A stretch of DNA of 64,000 bases from Phyllosticta citribraziliensis (GCF_038025025.1 NW_027117347.1:930001-994000); one strand, 5' to 3'; counted from the stretch's first letter, positions 32,374 to 52,155 are shown. The notes: a model not told the origin generated them from the sequence alone. A program made the numbers and translations.

Positions 32374-35178
32374 TCAAATGCCACTCTCCTTGAGGACGCT
32401 CTTGAACTTCTTCTGGAACGTCGCAACGTGCGCCGTGATGAGATCAAGATGCGACCCGTCGACGAGATGGAATTGCACGCCGCCGCCAATGTACTTGTTC
32501 CACTCGCTCAAGCCCTCCATCCACTGCTCGAGGTTGAATCCAATCCACGCGGGCGGCTTGGCGTAAAAGACGTGCATGCCAGACTTTGTCAGGCCCGACG
32601 GCTCATACGGCTTGGAAATGACCTTGAGGCTGTAGTCCGTGGCAGTCCAGGCCTCCAACTGCGTCCTCGTCATGCCCATCTCGGAAAGTCGGATGGGGTC
32701 GGCGTGCTGCATGATGAAGTCGAGGGCGTCGTCTTGAGACATGCCGGTAAGGACGGGGCGCAGCGAGACGTTGCACTCTTGCTCGGAGATGAGGCCGAGC
32801 GAGTGCGACAGGAACAGCAGACTGCCGGTCCAGTCGCGCGTGTTGATGTGGTCGACGAAGCGCGGCTGCTGGTCCAGCGCCGACAGGAAGCGCACCTCGC
32901 AGCCCGCCGCCTCGAGCCCCTTGGCCACCTCGAACGCCACGTTGCCGCCATACGAGTAGCCCACGATGGCATATGGGCCCTCGGGTTGCGCGGCGCGGAT
33001 TGCGTCGACGTATATCGCCACCATTTCGGGAAAGGATGTGAAGACCTCTTCGCCGTCGAGGCCGCGGGCGCGCAGCCCGTACACGCGTCGGTCCGTGATG
33101 TATGTTGCCAGCTTCATGAAGACAAGGACCTCGCCACCGCCAGGGTGGATGCACCACAGCGGGGTGCCGTCGCCGTTGGGCTGCAGGACGGTGACGGGGT
33201 CGTACTCGCCGCTCTGCAGCTTCTCAATGGCCTGGGCCAGCGTCTTGATGGTGGGGTTGGTCATGAAGACGGAGACGGGGATCGACTTTGAGACGCCGAG
33301 CGCCTCCTCGAAGAAGAACTTGAGCTTGAGCAGCTCCACCGACGTCACGCCCAGGTCGAAAATGTCGTCGTTGATGCCCAGCTCGCGGTCCGTCTGGAAG
33401 TAGTCGATCAGCACCCGGTGGATCGTCTTTTCCGTCTCGCTGCCCGGCGCCTCGTAGAATTGCAGCTTGTACTCCTTGATGAGCGCGTCGTTGGTTGTCT
33501 CGCACTCGAGGTACTGTCCGGCTTCGAACGCCTTGCGCAGCTTGGCGCGCGACAGCTTGCCCAGCGACGACAGCTGCAGGTGTTGCCGCGTCAGGGGAAT
33601 GACGCGATATGGCCGCACGCTGTAGTGCTGGAACACCATCTTGGTGATTTGCTCCGTCGTCTCGACACGCGCAACAATGTCGTCCTCGGCATACGTGGGC
33701 AGATATACGACGACGACGACTTCGGTGTCGTGGCCCTTGGGCCGGTGCGGGAAGACGGCCGTGAAGCCGGGCGTCAGGCCGGTGACGCGGCCGTCGTCCA
33801 GATCCGTTTCCAGGTCCTGCGTGAAGTACTTGACGCCGTTGACGTTGACGCTGTCCTTGGCGCGGCCGGTAAAGTTGAGGCAGCCCTGCCCGTCGAGGTA
33901 CGCCATGTCGCCTGTCTGGAACCACCCGTCGAGGATCGACTCGTTCGTCGCCGTCGGGTTGTTGTAGTAGCCTTGGAAGACGACAGGACCTGAGACTTGC
34001 AGATATCCCGTTTCGTTGGGGCCGAGGACTGCTCCCGTCTCTTGGTCTACGACGCGCATGTCGATGCCTGGGACGCAGTGTCCGAGCGACGCAAACTCGA
34101 GGTCGTTGGCGAGGTCGTACGACGGGCAGTTGTTGTTGTAGATGGATCCGGCGCAGGTCTCGGTCATGCCGAAGCCGGGTCTGATGAAGTCGGCGGGCGC
34201 GCCGAACTCCTTGAGCTGTAGGCTCAGGGCGGCGCACGTCTCGACGACGTTGGCTTCTCCACCAGAGATGAGGGCGCGCAGGTTCGACAGATCAAACTTG
34301 TCGTCGAAGCGGAACCCGTCGGGCTGGTTGAGGGCGCGGCGGATGTTGGCGAGGAAGAAGTTTGGCGCAAAAGTGTATGCGACTCTGTTCTTGGCCAGCA
34401 GTTCGAGGAAGAAGAGCGGTTCCTTGATCATGTCGACGGCAGGGACTTGGACCTGCTCGGCTGCCAGGTTCATGGCGTGAAGGTGGATTTCAGTCAGGTT
34501 TGCAACGTCTATTCAAGGTTAGTGATTTTCATTCACAGTTTTGACGTGTGCCTTACGGTCAAATCCGATCCAGTTGAGAAAGACGTCTTCCGACTTGGTG
34601 TCGTGGTGAAAGCTCTTTCCTCGGATTGCGGTCAACATTTGCCCATGACGGAGCATGACTGCCTTGGAGTTGCCAGTGCTTCCCGACGTGAGCATGAGCG
34701 CAGCGAGATCGTCGGCACCCTTTGAAAGACCAGTAGCCTCTTGCGCAGTCTTGTCCACGGCAAACTGGGCCAAGTCCTCCACTGGACGAAGCTTGAGGTA
34801 TTCATGGCCGACAAAGTCGTCGACGAGGCGCGAGGAAGTCAACACAAGCGGATCCAGCAGCGTGTGCAAGTGATCGAGATGCCTCTTCCGCGCCTCGAGG
34901 TCGGAGACGAGCGGAGTCGAAACAGCTGGAACATAGCCGGCAAGTACAACGGCCCAGAACCAGGTAATGTTGTCGTAGTGGTTATCGAAGTGGAGCAAGA
35001 ACCTGGTGTCCTTCTCGGCGCCCAGGCTGAGAATTGAGGACGTCTTTTCCTGCGCTATCTCGAGGAGCTTCCGGTATGTGACGTGCTTCGACCCGGCCGA
35101 GGACTCAAACAAGATGCCCCGGTTGGCGGGATACTCTGCGGCATTGACAAGAATCTGGGACAAGTTTTTGGCCAACAT
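32374..35178 (-). CDS. NRPS-like A-T-TE enzyme (aryl alpha-keto acid condensing; MicA/AtrA/PgnA-type), about 918 aa, 2 exons
   Basis: A domain: LMLTSGSTG, WIGFDHVANL (across intron 34509-34556), GFGMTET, WFQTGD, GRAKD and LGKLSR. T domain: DLGVTSVEL. TE domain: HPGGGEVLVF, GYSYGG and DGSH. No condensation domain. Confidence 0.93.
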
Positions 35179-39390: not shown

Positions 39391-40028
39391 ATGCCAGGAT
39401 TCCAAGAACACATCGAGGTGAGGACGACGCGCCTTTGTTTGCGCCGCTTGCGCGTGCAGGATGCGGAAGATGTCCATCTGATCCGGTCGCGTCTCAAGGC
39501 CATGGGTTACTCGTAAGTTTTCCACACCAGTCAGGCCTCGCGACCAAGGTGACACGCTGACCAAGCTGCAGTATCAGAGGCCCCGACACGAGCATCGAAC
39601 ACACGCAGAACTGGATTCGCACCGAATCGAGCCGTTCCAACACGCACAATCTCGGCATAGTGTTGCTGGACCCAGAAGAGGACTCGACTAGCGCTTCAAA
39701 CAACTCCAACAGACATAGAGTGATTGGCTTGGTAGGCGCAGTCGAGGCTCCAGAAATCGGCTACGTGATCCATCCGGATTTTTGGGGGCGCGGTCTGGCC
39801 ACAGAAGCCCTGCAGACGTTCATGCCACTCTACTGGGAGCAATTCCGGACCAAGTTTGACTTTGCTTTTGCCAAAATAGACCCGAACAATGGTGCAAGCA
39901 AGAAGGTGTTGCTGAAATGTGGCTTCAACCTGGAAGAGACGCAAACCATCGGCTTCGAAAACCCAAGTCTAGGCCTGACAGATATTGATATCTACCGCCT
40001 GCGGCGCCCAAGGCCCATTTGTCAATAG
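39391..40028 (+). CDS. GNAT acetyltransferase (RimJ/RimL, Acetyltransf_3-like), 2 exons
   Basis: IEVRTTRLCLRRLRVQDAEDV; intron GTAAGT...GCTGAC...GCAG; EIGYVIHPDFWGRGLATEAL and IDPNNGASKKVLLKCGF. Confidence 0.87.
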
Positions 40029-40189
40029 AGACAACTGTCTGCAACGGGGCAAAGTGTTCCTGGAGGACGGTCCAGAACCTTCGGGCCAGCTCGAGTAGCA
40101 CGGCAGGAGTTTGATGATACGGAGTTTTGCACATGGCAAACGGCCATTCTTCCACTTGGCTGAGCCTGGCTTTCGAAACGTCGTCCCGC

Positions 40190-40305
40190 AAGGGTGAAGA
40201 AAACAAGCCGGCCCGCCTGTGGCGCCTGTTGGAGGCTCAAGTCATGTGATTCTGCCCTGCGTCGGCAGCAGGGTACGTTGAGCCAGTTAGTGCGTCACTA
40301 CGAAG
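40190..40305 (+). pseudogene. Possible decayed Zn(II)2Cys6 DNA-binding domain
   Basis: KKTSRPACGACWRLKSCD, then after a frameshift PCVGSRVR*AS*C. The Ser codon AGC is one base from TGC. This resembles both halves of a binuclear zinc cluster, with wrong spacing and stops. Confidence 0.3.
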
Positions 40306-40962
40306 GATCCAGCGTCAGCCTCGCGATGAAAGAGGCGCAGGCCATGGCGGAGCGAATGATCAAGCACGAATCAGCCTCATCCAGCAGTTCAACACCCATG
40401 ACACTCCAGATTCACGCTCTGTCCGAAGCCCTGACTACGACTTTCGAACAAATGTTCCTTCTTTGGTCGCCTGAGTTCGCCTTGGTCTGGTGGTTTTGGG
40501 TGTTGAAGCAACCCAGGCTGCACACATGTGGCCTTGAGTCTGTCCTTCTGCCAACGAGGAGTCAAGCCTCAACGTCACTGCAGGAGGACTCGGCAAACAT
40601 TGGCCCCCAACGTACCTTTTTCTTCGCGCATGTCGAGTGAACAACGACCGTAGAATTGGAGACTTTCGCTCAGGTTTTCCAACTTGGATTATTCACAAAC
40701 TGCGTTTTCTCATTTGATATGGACGCAACTTTTGCTTGGCACTCCGGGAAAGAATCACGTTGCCTTGACATCACGAGCCCTGGAGCCTTCGGCAAAGACA
40801 GGCTCCATTAAAGGGTCGAAGATTCCTCATTGACTCACCACAAATCGATCGCCCTCGAACGCCTTGATTGTCCCGGCAAGACCCCTTTTGGCGTCATCTG
40901 GACGGCCGCAAAACCTCGACGACGTATTTAAGTCTAACTGGCCCGCTTCGCAACGAATCATC

Positions 40963-43008
40963 ATGCACCCGCCACAAACAGAGATGGAAGGATCAAAACC
41001 CAACCCTCGCGCCCCACTCCGGCTTCTCTCGCTCGACGGTGGAGGAGTTCGGGGCCTGTCCAGCCTCATGGTACTGGACGACTTGATGGAGAACATTGCG
41101 CTCGAAGAGAAGAGACTGGGCTTGCGTCAGACCAACGATAACGCACCGCTCAAGCCCTGCGATTATTTCGACCTCATCGGTGGTACCAGCACAGGCGGAA
41201 TCATTGCCATCCTACTTGGACGACTGCAGCTGGACATCAAGGCCTGCCTCAAGATTTACACCGAACTCGCAGAACAGATTTTCAAAAATGACAGGTCCTT
41301 CAATTTTGCTGGAATGAAGGTCCCCGTCGGCAAGACTCGTTTTTCTGGTGCAGTTCTCGAAAATGCCATCAAAAAAGCGCTCGTCAATCTTGGTTACGAC
41401 GAAAACGAGCTCATGTGGGACGATTCCCTGTTCGAAGAGCAAGGCGAGCAAAGAGACACGCAGGCTGATAGCATCTGGGCCGATGTTCCGGCGCCAGCCA
41501 TCACTGAATCACCGCAGGAAAGCCTCAAGGCAGAAAGCAGGGCTCCTACTCCAACAAAGTTGTCAAAATCCAAAACGACCAACAGCTTCTCTGAAGCCTC
41601 AACACTCCAATCTTTCAAACGCCACAATCGCAAAAATACTCCCACGTGGCGAGTACACCGGCATACGTCTGTACACCGAAAGCCCAACCAAAGAGGCTGT
41701 CGCACGTTTGTGGTCTCTGCTCTCAAAAATGCCCTTGGTCTTCCTCGCATCCTATCTACGTACGATCCCAACGACCGTCAGACAAGGATTTGGGAGGCTC
41801 TCCGTGCCACCTCTGCTGCTCCCACATTTTTCGAAGAAATGGCTTTTGGCACGCCTCGCATGACATATCTTGATGGAGGCGTCGGATTTAACAACCCTTG
41901 CGCCGAGGTCGACTACGCGGCCAAGTCAGTTTGGGAAGGCCGTTCGATTGGCGTCATAGTGTCTGTCGGGACAGGGCTCCAAACCATTCCATCGGTCAAG
42001 AAAGTTGCAAGTTGGCTTCCCTTTGGCCTGGGCACAGACATTGCGCTTGCATCTGCACTCGGCTCTTTGGCAACCGGCACTGCGCGAGTCGATAATGAAA
42101 TGCAGCGCATGTACTACGACACACCCACGCAGTACTACCGCTTCGATGTTGATGGCGGTCTTGCCAACATTTCCCTCGAGCAGTGGATGATGGAAGACGA
42201 AATGGCTGCTCTGACTGAGCAATACATGCGGGACTCGCAACAAATGCGCCGCGCCCAACAGTTCGGCGAACTCATCGTCAAGCTCTCCGCTCTACCGTCC
42301 AAGTTTGAAATCCCCGCGACCGCTTTCCGAGCCGGCATCACAGGCCGCGGCCTCATTGATGGCTCCTTCATCCAAGAAGAGCTCGACTTCAAAACGGGGT
42401 TCCCCCTCGGCGTCGTCCCGACTCTGAGCGAACGTCAAAACCTGTCCCAGCTCGCCACCACCTCGCCTTCAGGGCAGCGCGGTATCACTCTCGACTCCAA
42501 CGGCCGCGTCCGTGGCGTGCTACCCGTGGCGCTCGACCTCGACGGTGACGGCCGCCGCGAAGAATGCGCTGTCCTCACTTGCAAGCGCGCAGACAACGTG
42601 TGCCTTCGCGCTTTGCGCACTGGCATACCACCTGGCCACTACCGCGTCTCGTTCATCGTGTCGTTGTTCACACCCCAGCCGGACTGTACCATTCCATCAG
42701 AAATAGTCTTTTCAGTCGGGAAACCCTTGGACATGGCGACGTTTACGCATCGCATGGTCGATGTCAAGATTACCCCGGATGTGGTGCCAGTGCTGCTTGG
42801 TGTTGATGCTGTGCGCGTGCGTGTTGGCCGGAGCAGGTACGCAGAGATGAACGGCAAGGGCTGGATCGAGGTCAATGCGGACGTCGAGGTCGAGGTGGGC
42901 CTGGACGGCGCGCTGGGATTGCTTGTCACCAAGAGCTTCGAAAAGGGTGTCTTCGTGGGTGGATGGAGCTTTGGAGGTGTGAGATTGGAGCCAGTTGGCG
43001 CGCGGTGA
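40963..43008 (+). CDS. Patatin-like phospholipase with uncharacterised C-terminal beta-rich domain
   Basis: LSLDGGGVRG (oxyanion loop), YFDLIGGTSTGG (catalytic Ser), ATSAAPTFF and YLDGGVGFNNP (catalytic Asp). Single-exon ORF; the start may alternatively be at 40984. Confidence 0.9.
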   Translation: MHPPQTEMEGSKPNPRAPLRLLSLDGGGVRGLSSLMVLDDLMENIALEEKRLGLRQTNDNAPLKPCDYFDLIGGTSTGGIIAILLGRLQLDIKACLKIYTELAEQIFKNDRSFNFAGMKVPVGKTRFSGAVLENAIKKALVNLGYDENELMWDDSLFEEQGEQRDTQADSIWADVPAPAITESPQESLKAESRAPTPTKLSKSKTTNSFSEASTLQSFKRHNRKNTPTWRVHRHTSVHRKPNQRGCRTFVVSALKNALGLPRILSTYDPNDRQTRIWEALRATSAAPTFFEEMAFGTPRMTYLDGGVGFNNPCAEVDYAAKSVWEGRSIGVIVSVGTGLQTIPSVKKVASWLPFGLGTDIALASALGSLATGTARVDNEMQRMYYDTPTQYYRFDVDGGLANISLEQWMMEDEMAALTEQYMRDSQQMRRAQQFGELIVKLSALPSKFEIPATAFRAGITGRGLIDGSFIQEELDFKTGFPLGVVPTLSERQNLSQLATTSPSGQRGITLDSNGRVRGVLPVALDLDGDGRREECAVLTCKRADNVCLRALRTGIPPGHYRVSFIVSLFTPQPDCTIPSEIVFSVGKPLDMATFTHRMVDVKITPDVVPVLLGVDAVRVRVGRSRYAEMNGKGWIEVNADVEVEVGLDGALGLLVTKSFEKGVFVGGWSFGGVRLEPVGAR

Positions 43009-43663
43009 GTGTGTCGAGACGATTTCTTTCTGTCCACGGTTCGTCCTGCATTTCAGAGATATCCTTTCCCTGCATATGCACAGCAGCCGGAACTTTTGAT
43101 GGGTCTGTTGTGTATTCCTGTTTTTTTGTCCTATATCCCTATCTTGAGACAGCATTTTCGAAGCATTCTACGCGCAGCACATATACCCTACATCGCAAGT
43201 TATTATACGACTGGTTTTCTCCCCCATGTTCACATTTCCTCGAGATCACACGGGGATGATCACGAAATGGTCTGTGCCTCTGCAACTTGAGATCCGACGG
43301 TGGGTTGCGCCGCTTTTCTACTCCACCACTCGCCTTCTGACCCCGGTCCCGTTGACACGTCTCTCGCTCTTGCCGGTTTGGTGTTCGATACTCGCAGCTC
43401 AGTCCGCTTTGCCACGCAACGCCGGTCGATCCAAACTTTTTCTGGTGGTCTTTTTGTTCCTCTTCCCGGCTTTGGTCCACAAACTTAAACGATCCCCCCC
43501 GCGGGTCTCAACCAATTTACCTTCATCCAACTCTTCCTCATCCCTCCTGGTTTTGCATCAACACACACTCTGACCTCGACCAACCCTGATTCCACTGTGA
43601 GATTCTCTCTAAGGCAACCCTCTGACTTCATTTGATCAAATAGACTCTTGAAGCCTCCAGCAT

Positions 43664-43727
43664 GTAAGTTTGGCGTTGTGTCGAGCGGTACAACACAGAG
43701 GTTTGACTTCCTGACACGAAATTGCAG
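43664..43727 (+). other. Predicted 5'-UTR intron of Gag-like gene A
   Basis: GTAAGT donor at 43664, CTGAC branch point at 43711, TTGCAG acceptor ending 43727. Length 64 nt, ending 28 nt before the ATG. Confidence 0.6.
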
Positions 43728-43755
43728 CTGATTGATCTCGTATTTGAGAAAGAGC

Positions 43756-44478
43756 ATGGAGGAAAGCCAAAAAATCATTCTCTCCGAGTCGTCTGACTGG
43801 GATGCTTGGCTTTGCGCCGTCAAGATCCGCGCTCTCCAGCTGGGCACCTGGGACCTGATTGACCCCGCGAAAGAATCAAAGCCACGAGAAATCGCTCGAC
43901 CGAGCCCTCCCGAATGTCTTCAGGGTGACGAGAACTCTGAAACACACCAGAAGCATCTGGTGAAATGGCAGATCTACCAGATCCAGATGGAGCAATACCA
44001 GTTGCAGCAACGCGACCTTGGCTCGATTTCGGACTTCATCCTGCAACGAGTGTCTCCTTATTGGCTTTCCCGTCTGATGTTGCTCGCCAAATCCCATCAT
44101 CCTCTTGAGATCCTGCGCATCTTGCACGAAAGGATGACTCCCACACACTATGAGAGGATACACCTCTCGCAATCCGAACCGATAAAAGTTGACAAGATGC
44201 CCAAGGGTCCCAAGGAGAGCACGGTCTATGAGTGGCTCGACGCGTGGGATATGATTGAGGCAAGAAGCCGCTGGAGCCGGGATGAGATATGGAGGGATTT
44301 CCTGGCGGCCAGATTGGAAATGCTGGATGAGAAGTGGTACAAAGAGAACAAGTCTGCTGTTGACAAGGACTGGAATACGCGAGAGCTCATTGACAATTAT
44401 CGTCGGCACTGGAGAGACTCGCGAGCGCTGGACCTATGCAAATACGGATATGTTAGAACCACGCCGGAGGAGAGCTAG
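43756..44478 (+). CDS. Ty1/copia Gag-like protein A (240 aa, capsid region only)
   Basis: N-terminus IILSESSDWDAWLCAVKIRALQLGTWDLIDP...PSPP matches the pattern of ascomycete copia Gag N-termini. It aligns by eye with the ORF at 45582 (HHPLEILRILHERMTPT vs HHPWDILRLLQQKVAPT). Confidence 0.75.
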   Translation: MEESQKIILSESSDWDAWLCAVKIRALQLGTWDLIDPAKESKPREIARPSPPECLQGDENSETHQKHLVKWQIYQIQMEQYQLQQRDLGSISDFILQRVSPYWLSRLMLLAKSHHPLEILRILHERMTPTHYERIHLSQSEPIKVDKMPKGPKESTVYEWLDAWDMIEARSRWSRDEIWRDFLAARLEMLDEKWYKENKSAVDKDWNTRELIDNYRRHWRDSRALDLCKYGYVRTTPEES

Positions 44479-45489
44479 ACATGTTGCAGCTGAAAGATCA
44501 AGCCTAGGCAAAGCACTCATTCCCCACAACTAGCTTCAAGGCCACGACCGCGTTGTGGTTTCGACCTAGGAGCATAATGCTAGCAACCCTAAAATTAGGG
44601 GCCAGTTCGGCTAAGCCTTTCGACGCTGGAATTCGAAGCATCAAAACAGGCGAACACTGATCGCAAATGCCAGCCATCTGTAAAATTTGCCACTGCAGCC
44701 CTGGATCCTCTTGTTCTTACAGAGTGGCGAGCGCTCTACCGCAGTAACCCCTGCAGTCCATCATCGCTATCTTGTCTTTCACTGCACCTGGACGGACCTG
44801 CGACACCATTGCACGTACGCGAAAATTACACGTCGCTTGCCGCCCGCGGGAGAGGCTGTGCCTGAAGCCGTGCGTATGTCTTAATTGCGCAAGACCATTC
44901 TCTCGGACAGGTTTGCAGCATATATACACCGATCAGGGAGCCCGTCAACCAAGGAAAAGTCTTCAGTAACCAACCCCCTTTCTGTCGTTTCAAGTATAGA
45001 TTACTTCCTGCTACCACTGTACAATGTTTGAAGTTTCAATTTGAATCTTTGATCTGTGGATTAGGTGGTTGTTGCCCAGCGCCGTACGCCAGCGCGTTAT
45101 CAACTGTGTTGTCAATCAACCGCGCGCCACCACGCGTTCCGAAATGTAATAAGAACATATTCTTAACATGTTCCTCTCCTCTCTAAGTGACAACGTCCTC
45201 CTGCTTCCTTTGCTGATGCAGTTGGAGTTGCCCCTGATGCAGTGTAACATGCACCTCCATCATCCCTCACTTGCCCCCCACTTAACGTTTGATGAACGAC
45301 ATCAAAGCAGACTCAAACGCCGGCTTGTACGTCGACTCTTGCCTTGCTATTTTTGGACTCGGAAGGTCCGGAGGTATGCCGGTTCTTCGTTCAGTCCATC
45401 TGGCTTCATCCGAAAATTCTCACCAAGCCTGTTCGTCGTCCACCAACCGCCGCTGCTAGAGTCGCGAGCCCCGGAGGAACCTTGAACAC

Positions 45490-45563
45490 GTATGTCGAAC
45501 TTCCCAATAGCCTGTAACTGGCGATGAATTGCCTTTCTAACGATGATTCCTCATGTCTTCTAG
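45490..45563 (+). other. Predicted 5'-UTR intron of Gag-like gene B
   Basis: GTATGT donor at 45490, CTAAC branch point at 45537, TTCTAG acceptor ending 45563. Length 74 nt, ending 18 nt before the ATG. Confidence 0.65.
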
Positions 45564-45581
45564 CACACAATTTTTGGCGAC

Positions 45582-46775
45582 ATGGATGCGCGGCGTGTCG
45601 ACTTCGTACTTTCTCAGCCATCCGACTGGGATGTCTGGATATTCGTCATCAAGACACGCGCTCTATCTCAAGGCATCTGGAACCTGATCGATCCATCGGA
45701 GAAAAGCAAGCCACAGGAGCCCGGCGAACCCACAGCGCCCTCGTTCATGGACGACTTGAGAGCCGGGCGTTTGCAACTTTCATCCAAACAAGACGAGCTC
45801 GAACTGCAGCTCCGGATGGCACAGATGGCAGTGTACACCAAGGATCTGGAGGAGCGACATGCGCTACGAGGTAAAATCAACGCCATGGCCGAGTTCATCA
45901 TCGATCGCGTGTCCCTGGACATGCTGTGCTGGCTGGCGTACACGGTCGACGAGCCACGCCATCATCCGTGGGACATACTGCGTCTACTTCAGCAAAAGGT
46001 GGCGCCGACGGCGCTCGAGAGGGAGCGCGACATACGGCTCAAGATCAAGGAGCTCGAAGCGCAGCCGCCCAGCACCAAGACCCTTTGCGAGCACCTGGAG
46101 ACGTGGGACAGGACCATCGCTCGAGCCGCCAAGCACGGCGTCAGAGTCGACGGGAACGAGCTCGCGTCCGTCTTCCTCGGCTGCATCGCGCGCGTCAACG
46201 AGGCGTGGGCGGCGGAGCAGATGGAGTCTCTCATCATTGACGGCGAGGACACGACGGCGCGCTCGCTCATCGACAAGTTCCGCAGCGACCGCAAGGTCAA
46301 GGGCATGTTTGCCGCCAGGGGGCCGCCGCCACCGCCGCACCTCCTCATCAGCAACGGCGCTGCCAACGCCAGCAACGGCAGCGAATCGAGCTTCCCCAGC
46401 ACGACGCTGCAAACCCCCGACGCCGAGACCAGGTACAAGCCGCCGCAGCACCACCACCCGATGCCATGGCGCCCGCTCTGCCCATGCGGCAAGTACGAGT
46501 ACTTCCCCGACTGCGCATATTTCAACCGGGCGGCGCGGCCGCCAGGTTGGGTTCCCAATCCGGTCACGCAGGAAAAGGTGGCCACGTACCTCACGGATCC
46601 GGCCAACGCGGACAGGGTCGAAAAGTCGCTGGACCGATGGAGGAAGATCCAGGCCAAGTTCAATCCGGGCTGGAGGGGTCTCGGTGATGGCGATGATGGT
46701 GGTGGTGGTGGTGACGAGTATGATGCGAGGTCGGATAGTGCTCCCCTGTGGCGGCGCAATGACTCTGGGTGGTGA
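45582..46775 (+). CDS. Ty1/copia Gag-like protein B (397 aa, with degenerate zinc knuckle)
   Basis: VLSQPSDWDVWIFVIKTRALSQGIWNLIDP...EPGEPTAP, a helical body, and CPCGKYEYFPDCAYFN...RPPGWVPNP, resembling the CxCGxxHxxxxCxY...RPxGWxP knuckle region of fungal copia Gag. Confidence 0.8.
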   Translation: MDARRVDFVLSQPSDWDVWIFVIKTRALSQGIWNLIDPSEKSKPQEPGEPTAPSFMDDLRAGRLQLSSKQDELELQLRMAQMAVYTKDLEERHALRGKINAMAEFIIDRVSLDMLCWLAYTVDEPRHHPWDILRLLQQKVAPTALERERDIRLKIKELEAQPPSTKTLCEHLETWDRTIARAAKHGVRVDGNELASVFLGCIARVNEAWAAEQMESLIIDGEDTTARSLIDKFRSDRKVKGMFAARGPPPPPHLLISNGAANASNGSESSFPSTTLQTPDAETRYKPPQHHHPMPWRPLCPCGKYEYFPDCAYFNRAARPPGWVPNPVTQEKVATYLTDPANADRVEKSLDRWRKIQAKFNPGWRGLGDGDDGGGGGDEYDARSDSAPLWRRNDSGW

Positions 46776-49137
46776 TGTTGGGTCTTCTCCAGAGTCTGGT
46801 TCCTGCTGCTGGTCGAGTGCTTGCAATAGCCTTCGCCACTGCTTCCAAGTGCTTGAATTCCTTTTCTCCTTTGGATGCACCGCCCAACTTTTGATCTGGA
46901 TGGCTGACTATTCTCTGGTTCGCATCACATTGTCCCTGATTTTAGTGGCTTTGAAAATGCACAAGACTCTTCGACGCCATTTCAGCAAAGTGACGGTGGG
47001 AGACCTGGAGTAAAGCAATCTGAGACAGGTCATTGAGAGAGCCAGGGTCGAAGTACATGACGACGCGGGAGCCAGTAATCTAGCCACCCTCCCTCGAGCA
47101 TCATCGGGGAGTCGTGATATACGAATCTTCATTGCCATAATCATTTGCACCTTCTTTGCTGTCATGGTCGGTGTGCTCAGGTTGGTCGTGAAATTAGTGC
47201 ATAGCGTAGTCAGAAATTCTTCCGGTTTCCCCTTTGTAGTCCTCTAAATCGCCTATAAAGCGGAGCGAGTGAGAGTCTTTGCTACGTTCCGTGCCAAACT
47301 CGTGCCTGAGGAGCTGGCGCCGCAGCAAATGCCTCCACGACTACCACAGGGGGTGAACTTATTGGTCGAACTCGCCAGGAGTTGGTTCTTACACACGAAA
47401 GGAGTGAGAGATCTCTTTCTCTCGCGGTGAGCACAAGATACACACGAGCCATTCACTCACCTTTTTCCTGCGCATCACTCTGGACAGCACTCGCCGTACA
47501 CGAAGCACGCTGTCTCTCAACGTCCCTACCTTTTTGAACGCCTGAACAAGGATCACTTCATCTTTTGCAAGAGAGTGTGCCCCCTGACTAACCCCCCAGA
47601 CAGCCCCCAGCCCCCAGCCCCCTGGCACGTGCAGCACAGCAACGCGAGGACGCACAGGACACCGACGGTCTAGCTTGAGCACGGCACGGACGTGGAGCGA
47701 GCGCCACGCACGAGCAGCAAGAGGCAGGTACACGGGCCAAGCGAGCCGGGTGAAGCCGGAGCAGACAGGGGCGGACGTGCCCGCCTGCGCCACGCTTCGG
47801 CCGGGCTCGTGGGTTGTGGTGCCTGGGCGTCGGCGGGCAGCGGTGGAGGCTGCTGCACAACGGAACCGACTCTATCGGTTCGCCGGTGACGGCACGACGG
47901 ACCGGTGAGCGGAGAGGACAAGTTGCACACGGGGTGGGTGGTTTTGGGATGGGGGCGGAGGTGGGGAGCTGTGTCGACGGGAGGCGAATGGAAGCGGGCT
48001 TTTGTGGGGAGGACGGGTCGTGGTGATGAGAGGTGGTGGCGAGCGAGCGAGCGACGCACGCCTTGCGGCCAGACGACAGACGTATGCTGATGATGGTGTT
48101 GACGGCTGGGAGCAGGTAATAATGGCGACGTGATCATTGGTGGAGGGGCCAAGGAATATCTTGTTGGACGGCGAGGGACCCTGCGTGGCGATGAGCGGCG
48201 AGCGAGCGAGCTTCGTCCGGTCCAGCGGGTGGTCTTTTTTTCTTCGCTGTTTTTCCTGGTGATGTTGTCGATGTTAGGGCGCGAGGACGTGAGCTGAGCC
48301 TGACTCGCCCGCCTCGGGGCCCGCCGCCGCCGACTTCGGGTCTGATGTGCGGGTTGCAGCGGAAAGCCGAAGAGGCATGTTTGGGCTTGCGAAGCGCCAG
48401 GCCGAGTTGCAGCGATGAGATGGGGTTCTCTCGGCGGCAGTCGCAAAAGTGATTACAGATGCAGAGAATAATGAGTGGGCCAAGACGATAGGTCGAGAGA
48501 GACGGGCAAGTCTAGCGTGTAACGGCGACCTGGCCCGGCCGTCGAGCTCCGGATGGTATCCCCGACATGTCGAGTACGGATGCAGCCATCAGGCGAGCAA
48601 GCTGTCCTGGTACTTTTGTCGCCGAGTGAAATTGTCATGGGGAACGAGGGTCGATATTTTGGGTTTTATCTGCGTTGGTGCAGATGCTTTGTCGTCGAGT
48701 TGACACACGGCTGAGGGGTCGACGTCTCGGCTATCGACCAACCATGTGCAGGGTACCTTGGCAGCAGCAGACTACCAACGACGGTGGCAGAAGGCGCATT
48801 GCTTGGATGGTGGCTCAGCTGAAGATTGTAAATTATAGATGGTCATGCCATGAGCTGGTGTTTCATTGGTCAGCATTGGCAATGGCTGGGGGCGCTGCCA
48901 GCGATTGAAGTGGTGCGTAGTATTGAACGAAGAGACGATATTGAACGGCAAAGACAGGGTAATTGAATCGATACTGCATACAGATTGAGATGTTCAAGTC
49001 ATTGAGCAGCAGCTGAACCGGGAGTGGTGCATCTTGGCCGGAGGTTGCGCGTTGTGGTTGAGAGTGGACCCTGAGATGCAGGGAAATGGAGAACAAAGTG
49101 TGACCAAAAGCTGGGGAACATGGAGAAAGCTTGGCCG

Positions 49138-50107
49138 GATAAGAATGGTTTGCTTGTTTTCAGCTGCGCAGCATTTAGCTTGTGGTTGTGGCGCAGAGGT
49201 TGTCCAGGGAGGCGATAAGGTAGTTCCCGAGATAGCCAACCGGCTGGACGGGTCGCGAGGTAGGGTAGGGTAATGAACGGGGGAAGATGATGACGCAGGA
49301 GATGTTGTCACACGGCGGGCGGAGGAAGGTCTGAAGACGGAGGATCCGCGTGGGAGTGAGTTTCAGACGCGGACATGTTGGTGTTTGTATTTGTAGCTTA
49401 TCTGGGGCGGCGTGGTGGTGATTTCTTTCGGGGCCGGAGAGGCGGGAAAAGGGCACGGCACATGCAAGATGGCGCAAAGACCTGGAGGCACGAGTCGCAC
49501 AGCGAGCGCATGGCAAAGTCTGGTTGTCGGGCTCGCAAAACCGCATGCGGAGGATGGAAGTTGGGTGTTGTTTTGGGACACTCCACTGCAGTCGACCTGC
49601 CATGACGCTGATTGGCCCAGGCTTATCAGCGGGCTAGACCAGGATGGCGGGCGATCGGTGGCGGGGCTAGGCCGCAAGAGGCAAGGGGGCATGCGTGGGT
49701 TGCATAAGGCTATGAGCAACCGATTGCCGCCACAGATAAGCTCTCTCCTCTCACCTCTCACGCTGTCTCCTCCCGTGCCAAGCCCACCGCACTACCGCAC
49801 CGCGCTGCATGTCTCCCGCTGCAGCTGATGAAATGTCGTGTCTTGGACTCGGCGAGCGGGCAGCCATTGCCTCAGCGCTTCAGCTGCTTTTTGCGCGCAG
49901 ATAGGACAATGCGGCGTCGTCAGTGGCCCCGCCGTTCGCAGCATCGAGAATCGCCCCGATTGTCCAGCGCAGTGGGCAGCCGAGGGCAGGGGGCGGTTCC
50001 ACGCTTCGACGTCTCTTCCAAGAAACCAAACCCCACGAGGGCGAGGGCGAGGCGGCGGCACCGGCCTCGTTTAATTTGCCTCAAGGAGCCTGGCCAGCGA
50101 CGATAAG
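49138..50107. promoter_or_regulatory. Cluster of GATAAG sites (AreA/NIT2-type) upstream of the ammonium permease
   Basis: GATAAG or CTTATC at 49138, 49214, 49397, 49622, 49735 and 50102, plus AGATAG near 49230 and 49899. Confidence 0.6.
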
Positions 50108-50329
50108 CGTCGGCTCATGCTGGCTTGCCCTGACCCTCGCTCCGCTCTTGACCTTTTCTTGCCTGTTGCCCAACCCAAACATTAAAACCGCTCAGGCCCC
50201 GCACTCCCTGTACCTGTTTACCTCCAGTAGATCCACCTCCGTCTACCTTACCTCCATCCTCCACTCTCTCCAACCACCACTCACTCGCCTGTCCGACGCC
50301 TCTCCCTTCCGTTGCTCCTCCCGCCCACC

Positions 50330-52155
50330 ATGTCCTACGCCTGGGTCGGCGCCCCGGCCGTCTACAATGGCACTGATCCCTTGGGCGGCGATTCAAGTGA
50401 GTACTGCCATGTCTTTGCCCTTCCTTGACTTTTGGTCCATCACGTGAAAGTGACGCGCCTGACGCGAACCACGACACGCCAAACGGGAATTTCCACTGAC
50501 GGCCCCAGAATCCGAAAACTTGAACCAATGGTTCCAATCTGGCGACCAGGCCTTCATCATCGTGGCTGCCGCCATGGTCTTGATCATGGTCCCTGGTCTC
50601 GGCTTCCTCTACTCGGGTCTCGCAAGAAGAAAATCTGCCCTGTCCATGGTGTGGGCCTGCATGGCCTCGTGTTCCGTCATCACTTTCCAATGGTACTTCT
50701 GGGGCTACTCGCTGGCATTTAGCCAGTACGCAACAAATGGCTTCATTGGAGACCTGCAAAAGTTCGGTTTGATGAAGACTCTTGCCGAACCGAGTCCTGG
50801 CAGCCCCCTGATTCCGGATTTGCTCTACGCCTTTTACCAGGTTGGTCCCTTTGGTCAATCCATTACAGCAGCTTTCTAACTGATGCAGATGCAATTCTGC
50901 GCCGTCACCGCTGCCATTGTCGTTGGTGCCGTTGCCGAACGCGGTCGCCTCATCCCCTGCATGGTCTTCATCTTTGCCTGGGCCACCATCGTCTACTGCC
51001 CGATCGCATGCTGGGCCTGGAACGTCAACGGCTGGTTTTACAAATGGGGAGGTCTCGACTACGCTGGTGGTGGTCCCGTCGAAATCGGTTCCGGAATGTC
51101 TGCCCTCGCCTACTCCTGGGTCCTCGGCCGTCGTCAGGAGAAGATGATGCTCAACTTCCGCCCCCACAACGTCTCCCTCATTACGCTCGGCACCATCCTC
51201 CTGTGGTTCGGCTGGCTCGGCTTCAACGGTGGATCCGCTTTTGGCGCCAACTTGCGCGCCGTCATGGCCTGCTGGAACTCCAACTTGACCGCCATGTTTG
51301 CCGCCATCACTTGGGTTCTTCTTGACTGGAGGCTCGCTCGCAAGTGGTCCATGGTCGGCTGGTGCTCGGGCACCATTTCCGGCCTCGTTGCCGCCACTCC
51401 TGCCTCTGGTTTCATCCCTCCCTGGGCAAGTGTTATCCTCGGCATTGTGACGGGCATTGTCTGCAACTTTTCGACCAAGAGTAAGTCTCACTCCACGTCA
51501 CGCCACTTTTCGAATGCTAATCAAAACAGTCAAATTCTGGATCCGCATCGACGACGCCATGGATGTCTTTGCCGAGCACGGCGTCGCTGGCATGGTCGGT
51601 CTCCTCTTCAACGGCATTTTCGGAGCGTCCTACATCATCGGCCTCGACGGCGTCAACACCGGACTCTACCCTGGCGGCTGGATCGAGCACGAATGGATCC
51701 AACTGCCCAAGCAAATCGCCTACATCGCCGCCACGGCCGGATGGGCCTTTTTCATGTCGGCGCTGCTGGCCTTCATCATCAACAAGATCCCCGGGCTGCA
51801 CCTGCGCGCCTCGGAAGAGGCCGAGCTGCTCGGCATGGACGACGACCAGCTGGGCGAGTTTGCCTACGACTACGTCGAGGTGCGCCGCGACTACCTGGCG
51901 TGGACGCCGGCCAAGAACGAGCCCGTGTCCAACGGCCACCAGATCCCGCAGGGCGAGCGCCACGGCATCGCCCAGCACAGCCAGATGCTCGAGGGCAAGG
52001 ACCCCAGCGAGAGCAGCTCCTCGGCCGGCCACGAGCACACCATGATTGGCGGCGACCGCCACGCCATTGCCATAGACGAAAAGGCCGAGACGACGCACCC
52101 GCAGCACATTGCGCCGATTGCGCCGCCGCCGCAGTCGGCACCGCGCGAGGAATAG
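50330..52155 (+). CDS. Ammonium transporter, Amt/Mep family (MeaA/Mep1-type), 4 exons
   Basis: GGDS|..ENLNQWFQSGDQAF; MVPGLGFLYSGLARRKSALS; DYAGGGPVEIGSG; FRPHNV; WFGWLGFNGGS; IDDAMDVFAEHGVAG; EEAELLGMDDDQLGEFAYDY. Confidence 0.95.

Follow-up and report, generated by a model that had tools for sequence, protein, structure and literature searches.

Capsid-derived host genes of fungi are represented by three deep co-options of the retrotransposon gag gene (PMC8321522) and by the yeast restriction factor Drt2 (PMC10951436, PMC12530519). Two genes that invite comparison with this record, termed A and B, lie in tandem in a 64,000-nucleotide (nt) stretch of DNA from Phyllosticta citribraziliensis (GCF_038025025.1, NW_027117347.1:930001-994000), which is referred to at its full length as the window and from whose first letter all positions are counted. 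A and B descend almost certainly from the Gag of Ty1/copia elements, and they are probably host genes rather than the remains of an element. A preliminary description of the pair had proposed a domesticated capsid (CA) system; since the literature already reports this kind of gene in fungi (Crtg12 and Crtg13, PMC8321522; Drt2, PMC12530519 and PMC10951436), the proposal is less novel than was assumed. In the open full-text literature (subscription journals fall outside this scope), no description is found of this Gag lineage, of a tandem arrangement of a CA-only and a CA-nucleocapsid-like protein, or of their leader introns.

Among fungi, the yeast factors offer the best precedent. The self-encoded Ty1 products p22/p18 and the endogenized Drt2 of Saccharomyces cerevisiae, which occupies a fixed locus, correspond to CA C-terminal domains that bind Gags from their respective subfamilies and poison the assembly of particles, with the specificity set by three interface residues, as PMC12530519 reports (further sources on Ty1/Drt2 restriction are PMC10951436, PMC8458377 and PMC4599808). 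The action of Fv1 on murine leukemia virus is conceptually similar to the lattice poisoning by p22/p18 and Drt2. The origin of mouse Fv1 is an ERV-L-like source. Like A and B, Drt2 and p22/p18 are fungal, Ty1/copia-derived capsid genes without Pol at a fixed locus, and the fold of the CA C-lobe is shared. A profile search of Protein Data Bank (PDB) sequences detects no similarity of A and B to Ty1 Gag, which sets them apart from Drt2 and Ty1. They also differ from Drt2 in residing in a filamentous ascomycete, in forming a diverged tandem pair and in having an intron in each 5' untranslated region (UTR).

The copia-derived genes of other ascomycetes provide a second comparison. In a screen of 2,011 eukaryotes, Wang and Han (2021; PMC8321522) report three fungal gag co-options, of which two, Crtg12 and Crtg13 of the Pleosporales and relatives, are copia-derived. 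In that source, Crtg12 and Crtg13 are stand-alone, expressed, single-copy genes of Dothideomycetes; both carry Retrotran_gag_2, Crtg13 also carries Retrotran_gag_3, and the neighbours are AbiEii, or PTZ00376 and ACPS genes. They resemble A and B in being stand-alone, expressed ascomycete genes derived from a copia gag. By contrast, A and B have no Pfam match, follow a patatin gene and form a tandem pair. The identification of A and B as Crtg12 or Crtg13 is ruled out by domains and neighbours, the genes being set apart by the published descriptions and not by direct sequence comparison. A and B come from a different copia Gag lineage than Crtg12 and Crtg13.

The Gag parts of fungal copia polyproteins share sequence homology with A and B. 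Unlike the copia/Ty1 (Pseudoviridae) elements, however, A and B have neither Pol nor long terminal repeats (LTRs), carry a spliced leader intron, and have a zinc knuckle that lacks its His (B) or is absent (A). Among animals, Arc/dArc1, PEG10, PNMA2, MOAP1 and Fv1 share with A and B a two-lobed CA fold within a host gene (fold matches at Z 5.7-8.3). The animal capsid genes other than Fv1 differ in that they derive from Ty3/gypsy sources, according to PMC8321522. The origin of A and B is independent of the animal domesticated capsid genes.

Copia Gag ancestry and capsid fold

A and B are co-oriented paralogues with open reading frames (ORFs) of 240 and 397 amino acids (aa), at the positions and lengths given in the preliminary description, and their common start, HHP and LID blocks and high divergence are likewise recovered. 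Identity is 30% over 233 aligned positions (BLASTP, E 2e-27), which is far beyond chance. The blocks common to both in the BLASTP alignment are the N-terminal LSxxSDWDxW...RAL..G.W.LIDP, HHP and LID..(F/Y)R; in the DNA, the alignment is limited to 111 nt of the N-terminal coding region, at 68%. The family residues that are invariant or at least 90% conserved in two family alignments are all kept in A (11 of 11) and in B (15 of 15), and the N-terminal conserved residues were verified by eye against the sequences. The intact frames at a residue difference of about 70%, together with the retention of fold-core residues, point to coding constraint for most of the history of the pair. This constraint may have acted in a host gene or in an element.

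The copia Gag-like nature that had been proposed for the pair is borne out by sequence and by fold. A phmmer search with A against 1.84 billion representatives gives 156 matches at E<=1e-3, including 30 at E<=1e-10. When 24 of these matches, chosen as the longest and the closest, are scanned with Pfam, families of the Pol type (Pol_BBD, gag_pre-integrs, SH3_retrovirus) follow the matched N-terminus in 17, and RVT_2, the reverse transcriptase family of the copia type, occurs in two; the four closest relatives, P0002-P0005, are among the seven scanned matches that lack Pol families altogether. In a tblastn comparison of five copia polyproteins with the window, polyprotein residues 1 to ~335 align with B (E 1e-24 to 1e-27) and residues 1 to ~240 with A. 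From these spans, B corresponds to a whole Gag up to the start of the protease barrel and A to the capsid part of such a Gag.

Domain models do not recover this relationship. Pfam returns no family at E<=1 for A and only two chance-level rows for B, and Retrotran_gag_2, Retrotran_gag_3 and DUF4219 are not among the families detected in either protein. This copia Gag lineage is too divergent for the Pfam Gag models and lacks a Pfam model of its own. As the lineage is invisible to such models, domain-based screens would miss the pair and its relatives. Likewise, when PDB sequences are searched with a profile made from the family alignment, the result is four chance-level rows (E 0.28-1.1) and no match, to Ty1 Gag or otherwise. 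In the ESM Atlas, the neighbours are ascomycete clusters named 'Gag protein' or hypothetical and, by structure, plant Retrotran_gag_2 clusters (TM-score 0.50-0.58 for A), all of which serve as leads only.

In an AlphaFold check of the CA fold, which had been suggested for the pair, the predicted structures place both proteins among the retroelement capsids. The AlphaFold2 model of A has a mean predicted local distance difference test (pLDDT) of 90.0 and a predicted template modelling score of 0.77, while the model of B, built from a 37-sequence alignment, has a pLDDT of 81.8 that rises above 90 over residues 10-245 and 300-360. In a VIA search of 48,161 PDB chains made independently of Foldseek, the best match of A is the capsid of Drosophila copia (8vvw_A), which aligns over 178 of its 184 residues at Z 10.2. 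The same chain is the best match of B in a second look by VIA (Z 10.6, 181 of 184 residues, model residues 5-245); Drosophila copia Gag is in this way the best structural match of both over nearly the whole capsid chain. For A, ranks 1-9 are all retroelement capsids: copia (10.2 and 8.7), the PEG10 C-terminal domain (CTD; 7.2), dArc1 (7.0), PNMA2 (7.0 and 6.8), Drt2 (6.1), the dArc1 capsid (6.0) and MOAP1 (5.8). Other matches of B are the copia T=9 capsid (Z 9.3) and PNMA2 (8.3 and 7.6), with the first unrelated row at 6.3. Helical models often reach Z 7-8 by chance in VIA; the fold is assigned here because a single protein family occupies the leading ranks and the alignments extend over almost all of the target chain. 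In Foldseek, the B model has no match at E<=0.001, and the top three rows are the copia capsid (twice) and the PNMA2 capsid, at E 0.079-0.91. A and B are complete two-lobed capsid proteins.

Both proteins carry the CA C-terminal domain, with which capsid-derived restriction factors contact their target Gag. In VIA, the Ty1' CA-CTD (9rxx_B) aligns over all 91 of its 91 residues with B residues 145-244 (Z 9.6, root-mean-square deviation 3.0). The PEG10 CA-CTD (Z 7.2) and Drt2 (Z 6.1) align on A residues 131-225, with Drt2 (9rxy_A) placed on residues 131-222. A prediction of a complex between A and B(1-250) scores 0.05 against a mark of 0.34 and, being made without controls, is not evidence either way.

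Beyond the capsid, the Gags of this lineage have a nucleocapsid-like end that is marked by C-x-C-G-x-x-H-x4-C, followed by RPxxW and a helical block. Of 150 collected proteins, 32 carry the knuckle motif; its seventh position is His in 27 of them, Met in three and Glu in two, the last two being B and P0005. A Cys/Cys/His/Cys zinc knuckle is lacking in both proteins of the pair: A ends before the knuckle, and Glu occupies the His position in B. Only three Lys/Arg lie in the 50-residue stretch that precedes the knuckle of B, the lowest value among the 32 knuckle-bearing proteins (range 3-12) and one that P0043 shares; as element Gags range widely, this basic-poor linker is only a hint. The three relatives with Met in place of the knuckle His are P0019, P0054 and P0063. 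P0019 also carries RVT_2, so the knuckle His is not strictly kept even in an element with Pol.

Phylogenetic analysis of the Gag region places A and B in a clade apart from the Pol-bearing Gags. A first tree includes the 94 of the 150 collected proteins with at least 140 aligned residues (P0115, a 4,984-aa chance match, was left out) and unites A, B, P0002 (259 aa), P0004 (237 aa) and P0005 (369 aa) in one clade with a Shimodaira-Hasegawa-like approximate likelihood ratio test (SH-aLRT) value of 99 and a stem of 0.78. The second tree has 37 rows: the clade itself, P0003 (trimmed to 240 residues) and every protein that has a knuckle or reaches 420 aa, except P0064, which was removed for its long branch; here A, B and P0002-P0005 form a six-member clade with support of 99/98. 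None of the six members has Pol. Within the clade, A groups with P0003 and P0002 and not with B, at a weak bootstrap of 83-88; if this placement is right, the duplication that gave rise to A and B predates the split from the genomes that carry those proteins.

The closest counterpart of B is P0005, which is named a hypothetical protein of Phyllosticta capitalensis by one source and has eight members on two contigs. P0005 and B are co-linear over 361 positions at 30% identity (E 1e-47), have the same end point, share the His-to-Glu change and are much better conserved over the last 60 aligned residues. Outside the clade, many relatives of ~200-260 aa without a knuckle stand beside Pol-bearing Gags (e.g., P0091 with P0051, and P0022 with P0028). 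These short proteins are probably annotation fragments of elements.

Transcription, element features and host-gene status

Both genes are represented on RNA contigs, and each has a spliced intron in its 5' UTR (Table 1); the check for transcription that had been suggested for the pair is positive. The X1 contig, of 7,517 nt, covers 40000-47467 and removes exactly the two leader introns, both GT..AG on the + strand. While X1 is not on record as RNA, it is read as such because the contig removes two canonical GT..AG introns. The introns are of the typical short fungal type and have fungal branch-point motifs. From the run of a second study (X2), contigs cover the 3' half of A (44078-44602) and parts of B (45668-45827, 46515-46665 and 46658-47024), so that the expression of A and B is indicated by the spliced X1 contig over both genes and by X2 contigs on both ORFs. 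X2 contigs are absent from 44828-45395 and from 47668-48500, from which no conclusion is drawn. A contig across the genes does not equate to one transcript, and contig depth gives no measure of how strongly either gene is expressed.

In the spliced forms, an in-frame TGA lies 27 nt upstream of the A start codon and an in-frame TAG lies 51 nt upstream of that of B. Both ORFs are therefore complete. An N-terminal extension of either ORF through its intron was considered and is ruled out by these stops. The shared position of the leader intron in the two paralogues points to an ancestor that already had it and to duplication at the DNA level.

Parts of an element other than Gag are not detected. 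No LTR-like direct repeats are found around A or B in 38-52 kb, nor in 42-49 kb by a word-7 blastn self-comparison, and tblastn with the five copia polyproteins finds no remnants of protease, integrase or reverse transcriptase (RT)/RNase H across the 64 kb, its only matches being Gag parts on A and B. These two genes are the only copies of this Gag in the window by tblastn. In the protein collections, no close copies of A or B are found, and a collection of 5.8 billion clusters returns each protein itself, with one member on two contigs. A word-based homologue search (queries B, A and the clade alignment) returned only the queries themselves, P0005 and P0006, a 63-aa fragment 78% identical to the start of A; this search needs shared 5-residue words and its blank is weak. 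A metagenome scan with a 4-sequence alignment gave a sole locus, L001, which is a bacterial membrane-transporter contig and spurious.

Gag-only, non-autonomous LTR retrotransposons of the plant TR-GAG type exist, as PMC4350172 describes, and A and B could in principle be elements of this kind that are mobilised in trans by an autonomous copia. This explanation is highly improbable: even a search with word size 7 recovers no terminal repeats around A or B, no close copies appear in the protein collections, each mRNA has a spliced intron, and the two copies, at 30% identity and in tandem, are unlike the products of recent transposition.

The composition of A and B is that of the genes around them. 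Usual cut-offs for repeat-induced point mutation (RIP) are ~0.89 for TpA/ApT and ~1.03 for (CpA+TpG)/(ApC+GpT). TpA/ApT is 0.35 in A and 0.31 in B, compared to 0.26-0.77 in 11 other ORFs of the window, and (CpA+TpG)/(ApC+GpT) is 1.61 in A and 1.28 in B, in the range of neighbouring host genes. No RIP signature is therefore seen in A or B, as both indices fall inside the range of the 11 other window ORFs. The G+C content of third codon positions (GC3) is 0.65 in A and 0.78 in B (0.51-0.89 in the same 11 ORFs), and an index like the codon adaptation index, computed against the window genes, is 0.705 in A and 0.753 in B (host range 0.66-0.84). The earlier picture of intact, stand-alone genes with no Pol, no LTR and no RIP damage, and of host-like GC-ending codons in B, holds for this window.

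A and B could instead be undomesticated relics, i.e., two old copia insertions, or one that was duplicated, whose gag frames are still open and which are covered by read-through or pervasive transcription only. The long end branches of the clade would fit such relics, as would the RNA contig, which is continuous from the patatin gene through both spacers. In addition, another frame over B contains an ORF of 384 aa, so that in this G+C-rich stretch long ORFs alone mean little. However, both frames of the pair are intact at ~70% residue difference with the nearly invariant family residues all kept, and P0005 retains the whole architecture and end point of B at 30% identity. It would be unexpected for two independent relics to have in common a spliced intron directly before the start codon, or to belong to a single Pol-less clade with 99/98 support. 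Pol and LTR debris is not found in the window, and codon use is host-like. The relic explanation is thus improbable, if clearly less so than a Gag-only element. The old domestication followed by duplication that had been proposed receives indirect support from the spliced 5'-UTR introns, the host-like composition, the lack of close copies in the protein collections and the Pol-less clade.

Proposed history and role

A and B would be two tandem, transcribed, single-copy host genes that arose from the gag of a Pezizomycotina Ty1/copia lineage. The ancestral Gag-only gene probably included a nucleocapsid-like part, as in B and P0005. It would have lost the protease, integrase, RT and LTRs, and acquired or kept a short 5'-UTR intron. 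A tandem duplication at the DNA level may have followed, after which copy A would have lost the nucleocapsid part and copy B the zinc-binding His. The proteins are proposed to act via CA-CA contacts, most likely by co-assembling with the Gag of related active copia elements and poisoning the particle lattice, and two diverged copies would give two specificities.

This explanation as a whole, in which tandem domesticated Gag genes serve as lattice-poisoning factors, is tentative and stands somewhat short of even likelihood. The restriction function, which is drawn by analogy to the yeast factors, is at most about as probable as the whole and perhaps slightly less. The divergence within the tandem pair and its long branches would be compatible with a restriction factor. 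It is rather doubtful that the ancient diverged pair, one member CA-only and the other with CA and a degenerate nucleocapsid, forms a two-specificity or two-component system, either as a restriction array against copia or as a mixed host capsid.

Several points weigh against this history and role. The signs for host-gene status are indirect. The stand-alone clade has only six representatives, one with a known source, and short library proteins can be annotation fragments. The branching within the clade is weak (83-93 bootstrap), and the order of the duplication and of the nucleocapsid loss is uncertain. End branches in the clade measure 0.71-1.43 and are thus no shorter than in element Gags, for which the median is 0.8-0.87; such lengths fit relaxed constraint as well as an arms race. 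Since the X1 contig also spans both intergenic spacers and the patatin gene, part of its cover could be read-through. The Met-knuckle relatives, including the RVT_2-bearing P0019, make the Glu of B weak evidence of a lost function. None of the present results bears on restriction itself.

If domesticated, A and B could also serve a different role, either by forming, like Arc, PEG10 and PNMA2, an RNA-carrying host capsid (perhaps a mixed one) or by acting as a non-capsid adaptor or scaffold; this is unlikely, more so than the two-specificity or two-component system. Both CA lobes are kept in A and B, while the C-lobe alone suffices for restriction in p18m and Drt2m, according to PMC12530519. 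The region that follows the knuckle of B is kept with high model confidence, and PNMA2, PEG10 and dArc1 are among the best fold matches. A capsid that carries RNA is harder to reconcile with the knuckle of B, which has no His and is preceded by a linker with three basic residues in 50 (the lowest among 32), or with A, which is devoid of any nucleic-acid-binding part. The fold matches to Arc and PNMA2 reflect shared CA ancestry and not function.

If A and B are host genes, as is probable, capsid capture would extend to filamentous ascomycetes, which already have RIP and RNA interference, and the pair would offer a natural example of duplicates that differ in their loss of the nucleocapsid part. 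The pair would also provide a tractable test of lattice poisoning as a general anti-retrotransposon strategy. A diversifying lattice-poisoning array, if true, would be the first Fv1/Drt2-like system outside yeasts and animals.

Feature coordinates and neighbouring genes

Table 1. Features of the A-B locus, with nucleotide positions in the window and residue numbers in the proteins.
Feature	Position	Strand	Size or residues	Remarks
Patatin-like phospholipase gene	40963-43008	+	681 aa	Directly upstream of A; Pfam Patatin at residues 22-315, E 6e-24
Gene A 5'-UTR intron	43664..43727	+	64 nt	GTAAGT...CTGAC...CAG; ends 28 nt before start codon; skipped by X1 contig
ORF A	43756..44478	+	240 aa	ORF call
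A protein, N-lobe	43765-44145	+	~residues 4-130	Capsid (CA) only; no nucleocapsid part
A protein, C-lobe	44146-44442	+	~residues 131-229	Capsid (CA) only; no nucleocapsid part
Spacer A-B	44479..45489	+		3' UTR of A, then promoter and first exon of B
Gene B 5'-UTR intron	45490..45563	+	74 nt	GTATGT...TCTAAC...TAG; ends 18 nt before start codon; skipped by X1 contig
ORF B	45582..46775	+	397 aa	ORF call
B CA N-lobe	45594-46004	+	~residues 5-141	AlphaFold2 model/VIA
B CA C-lobe	46005-46316	+	~residues 142-245	AlphaFold2 model/VIA
B linker		+	residues 254-294	Disordered, Pro/Ser/Asn-rich
B nucleocapsid-like part	46479..46661	+	residues 300-360	Knuckle C-P-C-G-K-Y-E-Y-F-P-D-C, RPxxW block, two helices
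B tail		+	residues 370-397	Disordered

The window is an ordinary gene-dense stretch, like that of a filamentous ascomycete, with a G+C content of 48-66%. The genes recognised across its 64 kb encode REV1, a Myb protein, a RabGAP, a nonribosomal peptide synthetase (NRPS)-like A-T-TE protein, a glycoside hydrolase family 43 (GH43) enzyme and an ammonium transporter. The patatin gene shares the X1 RNA contig with A and B, and the C-terminal half of its product (~360 aa) has no Pfam match.

In the spacer between A and B, self-comparison reveals neither a long repeat nor self-similarity, and tblastn with the copia polyproteins gives no recognisable coding remnant. Within B, a short repeat of the GGT/GAT type at 46682-46725 encodes a Gly/Asp run of the disordered tail and was skipped as a repeat in read mapping. 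The 384-aa ORF in another frame over the G+C-rich part of B lies at 45859-47013 (+ strand), is rich in Arg, Ser and Thr and of low complexity, and is most likely a by-product of the GC3-rich codons of B.

Downstream of B, the ~3.9 kb to the ammonium transporter gene (47000-50880) include several stop-to-stop ORFs of 120-460 aa without a Pfam match; nothing is recognised in this interval, and no Pfam family is found in eight downstream ORFs. A second X1 contig lies on 47803-48500. Elsewhere in the window, the ORF at 32374-34473 (- strand) includes the end of an AMP-binding domain followed by PP-binding and thioesterase domains, which identify an NRPS-like carboxylate-activating enzyme, and the GH43 gene and a short-chain dehydrogenase are located near this ORF.

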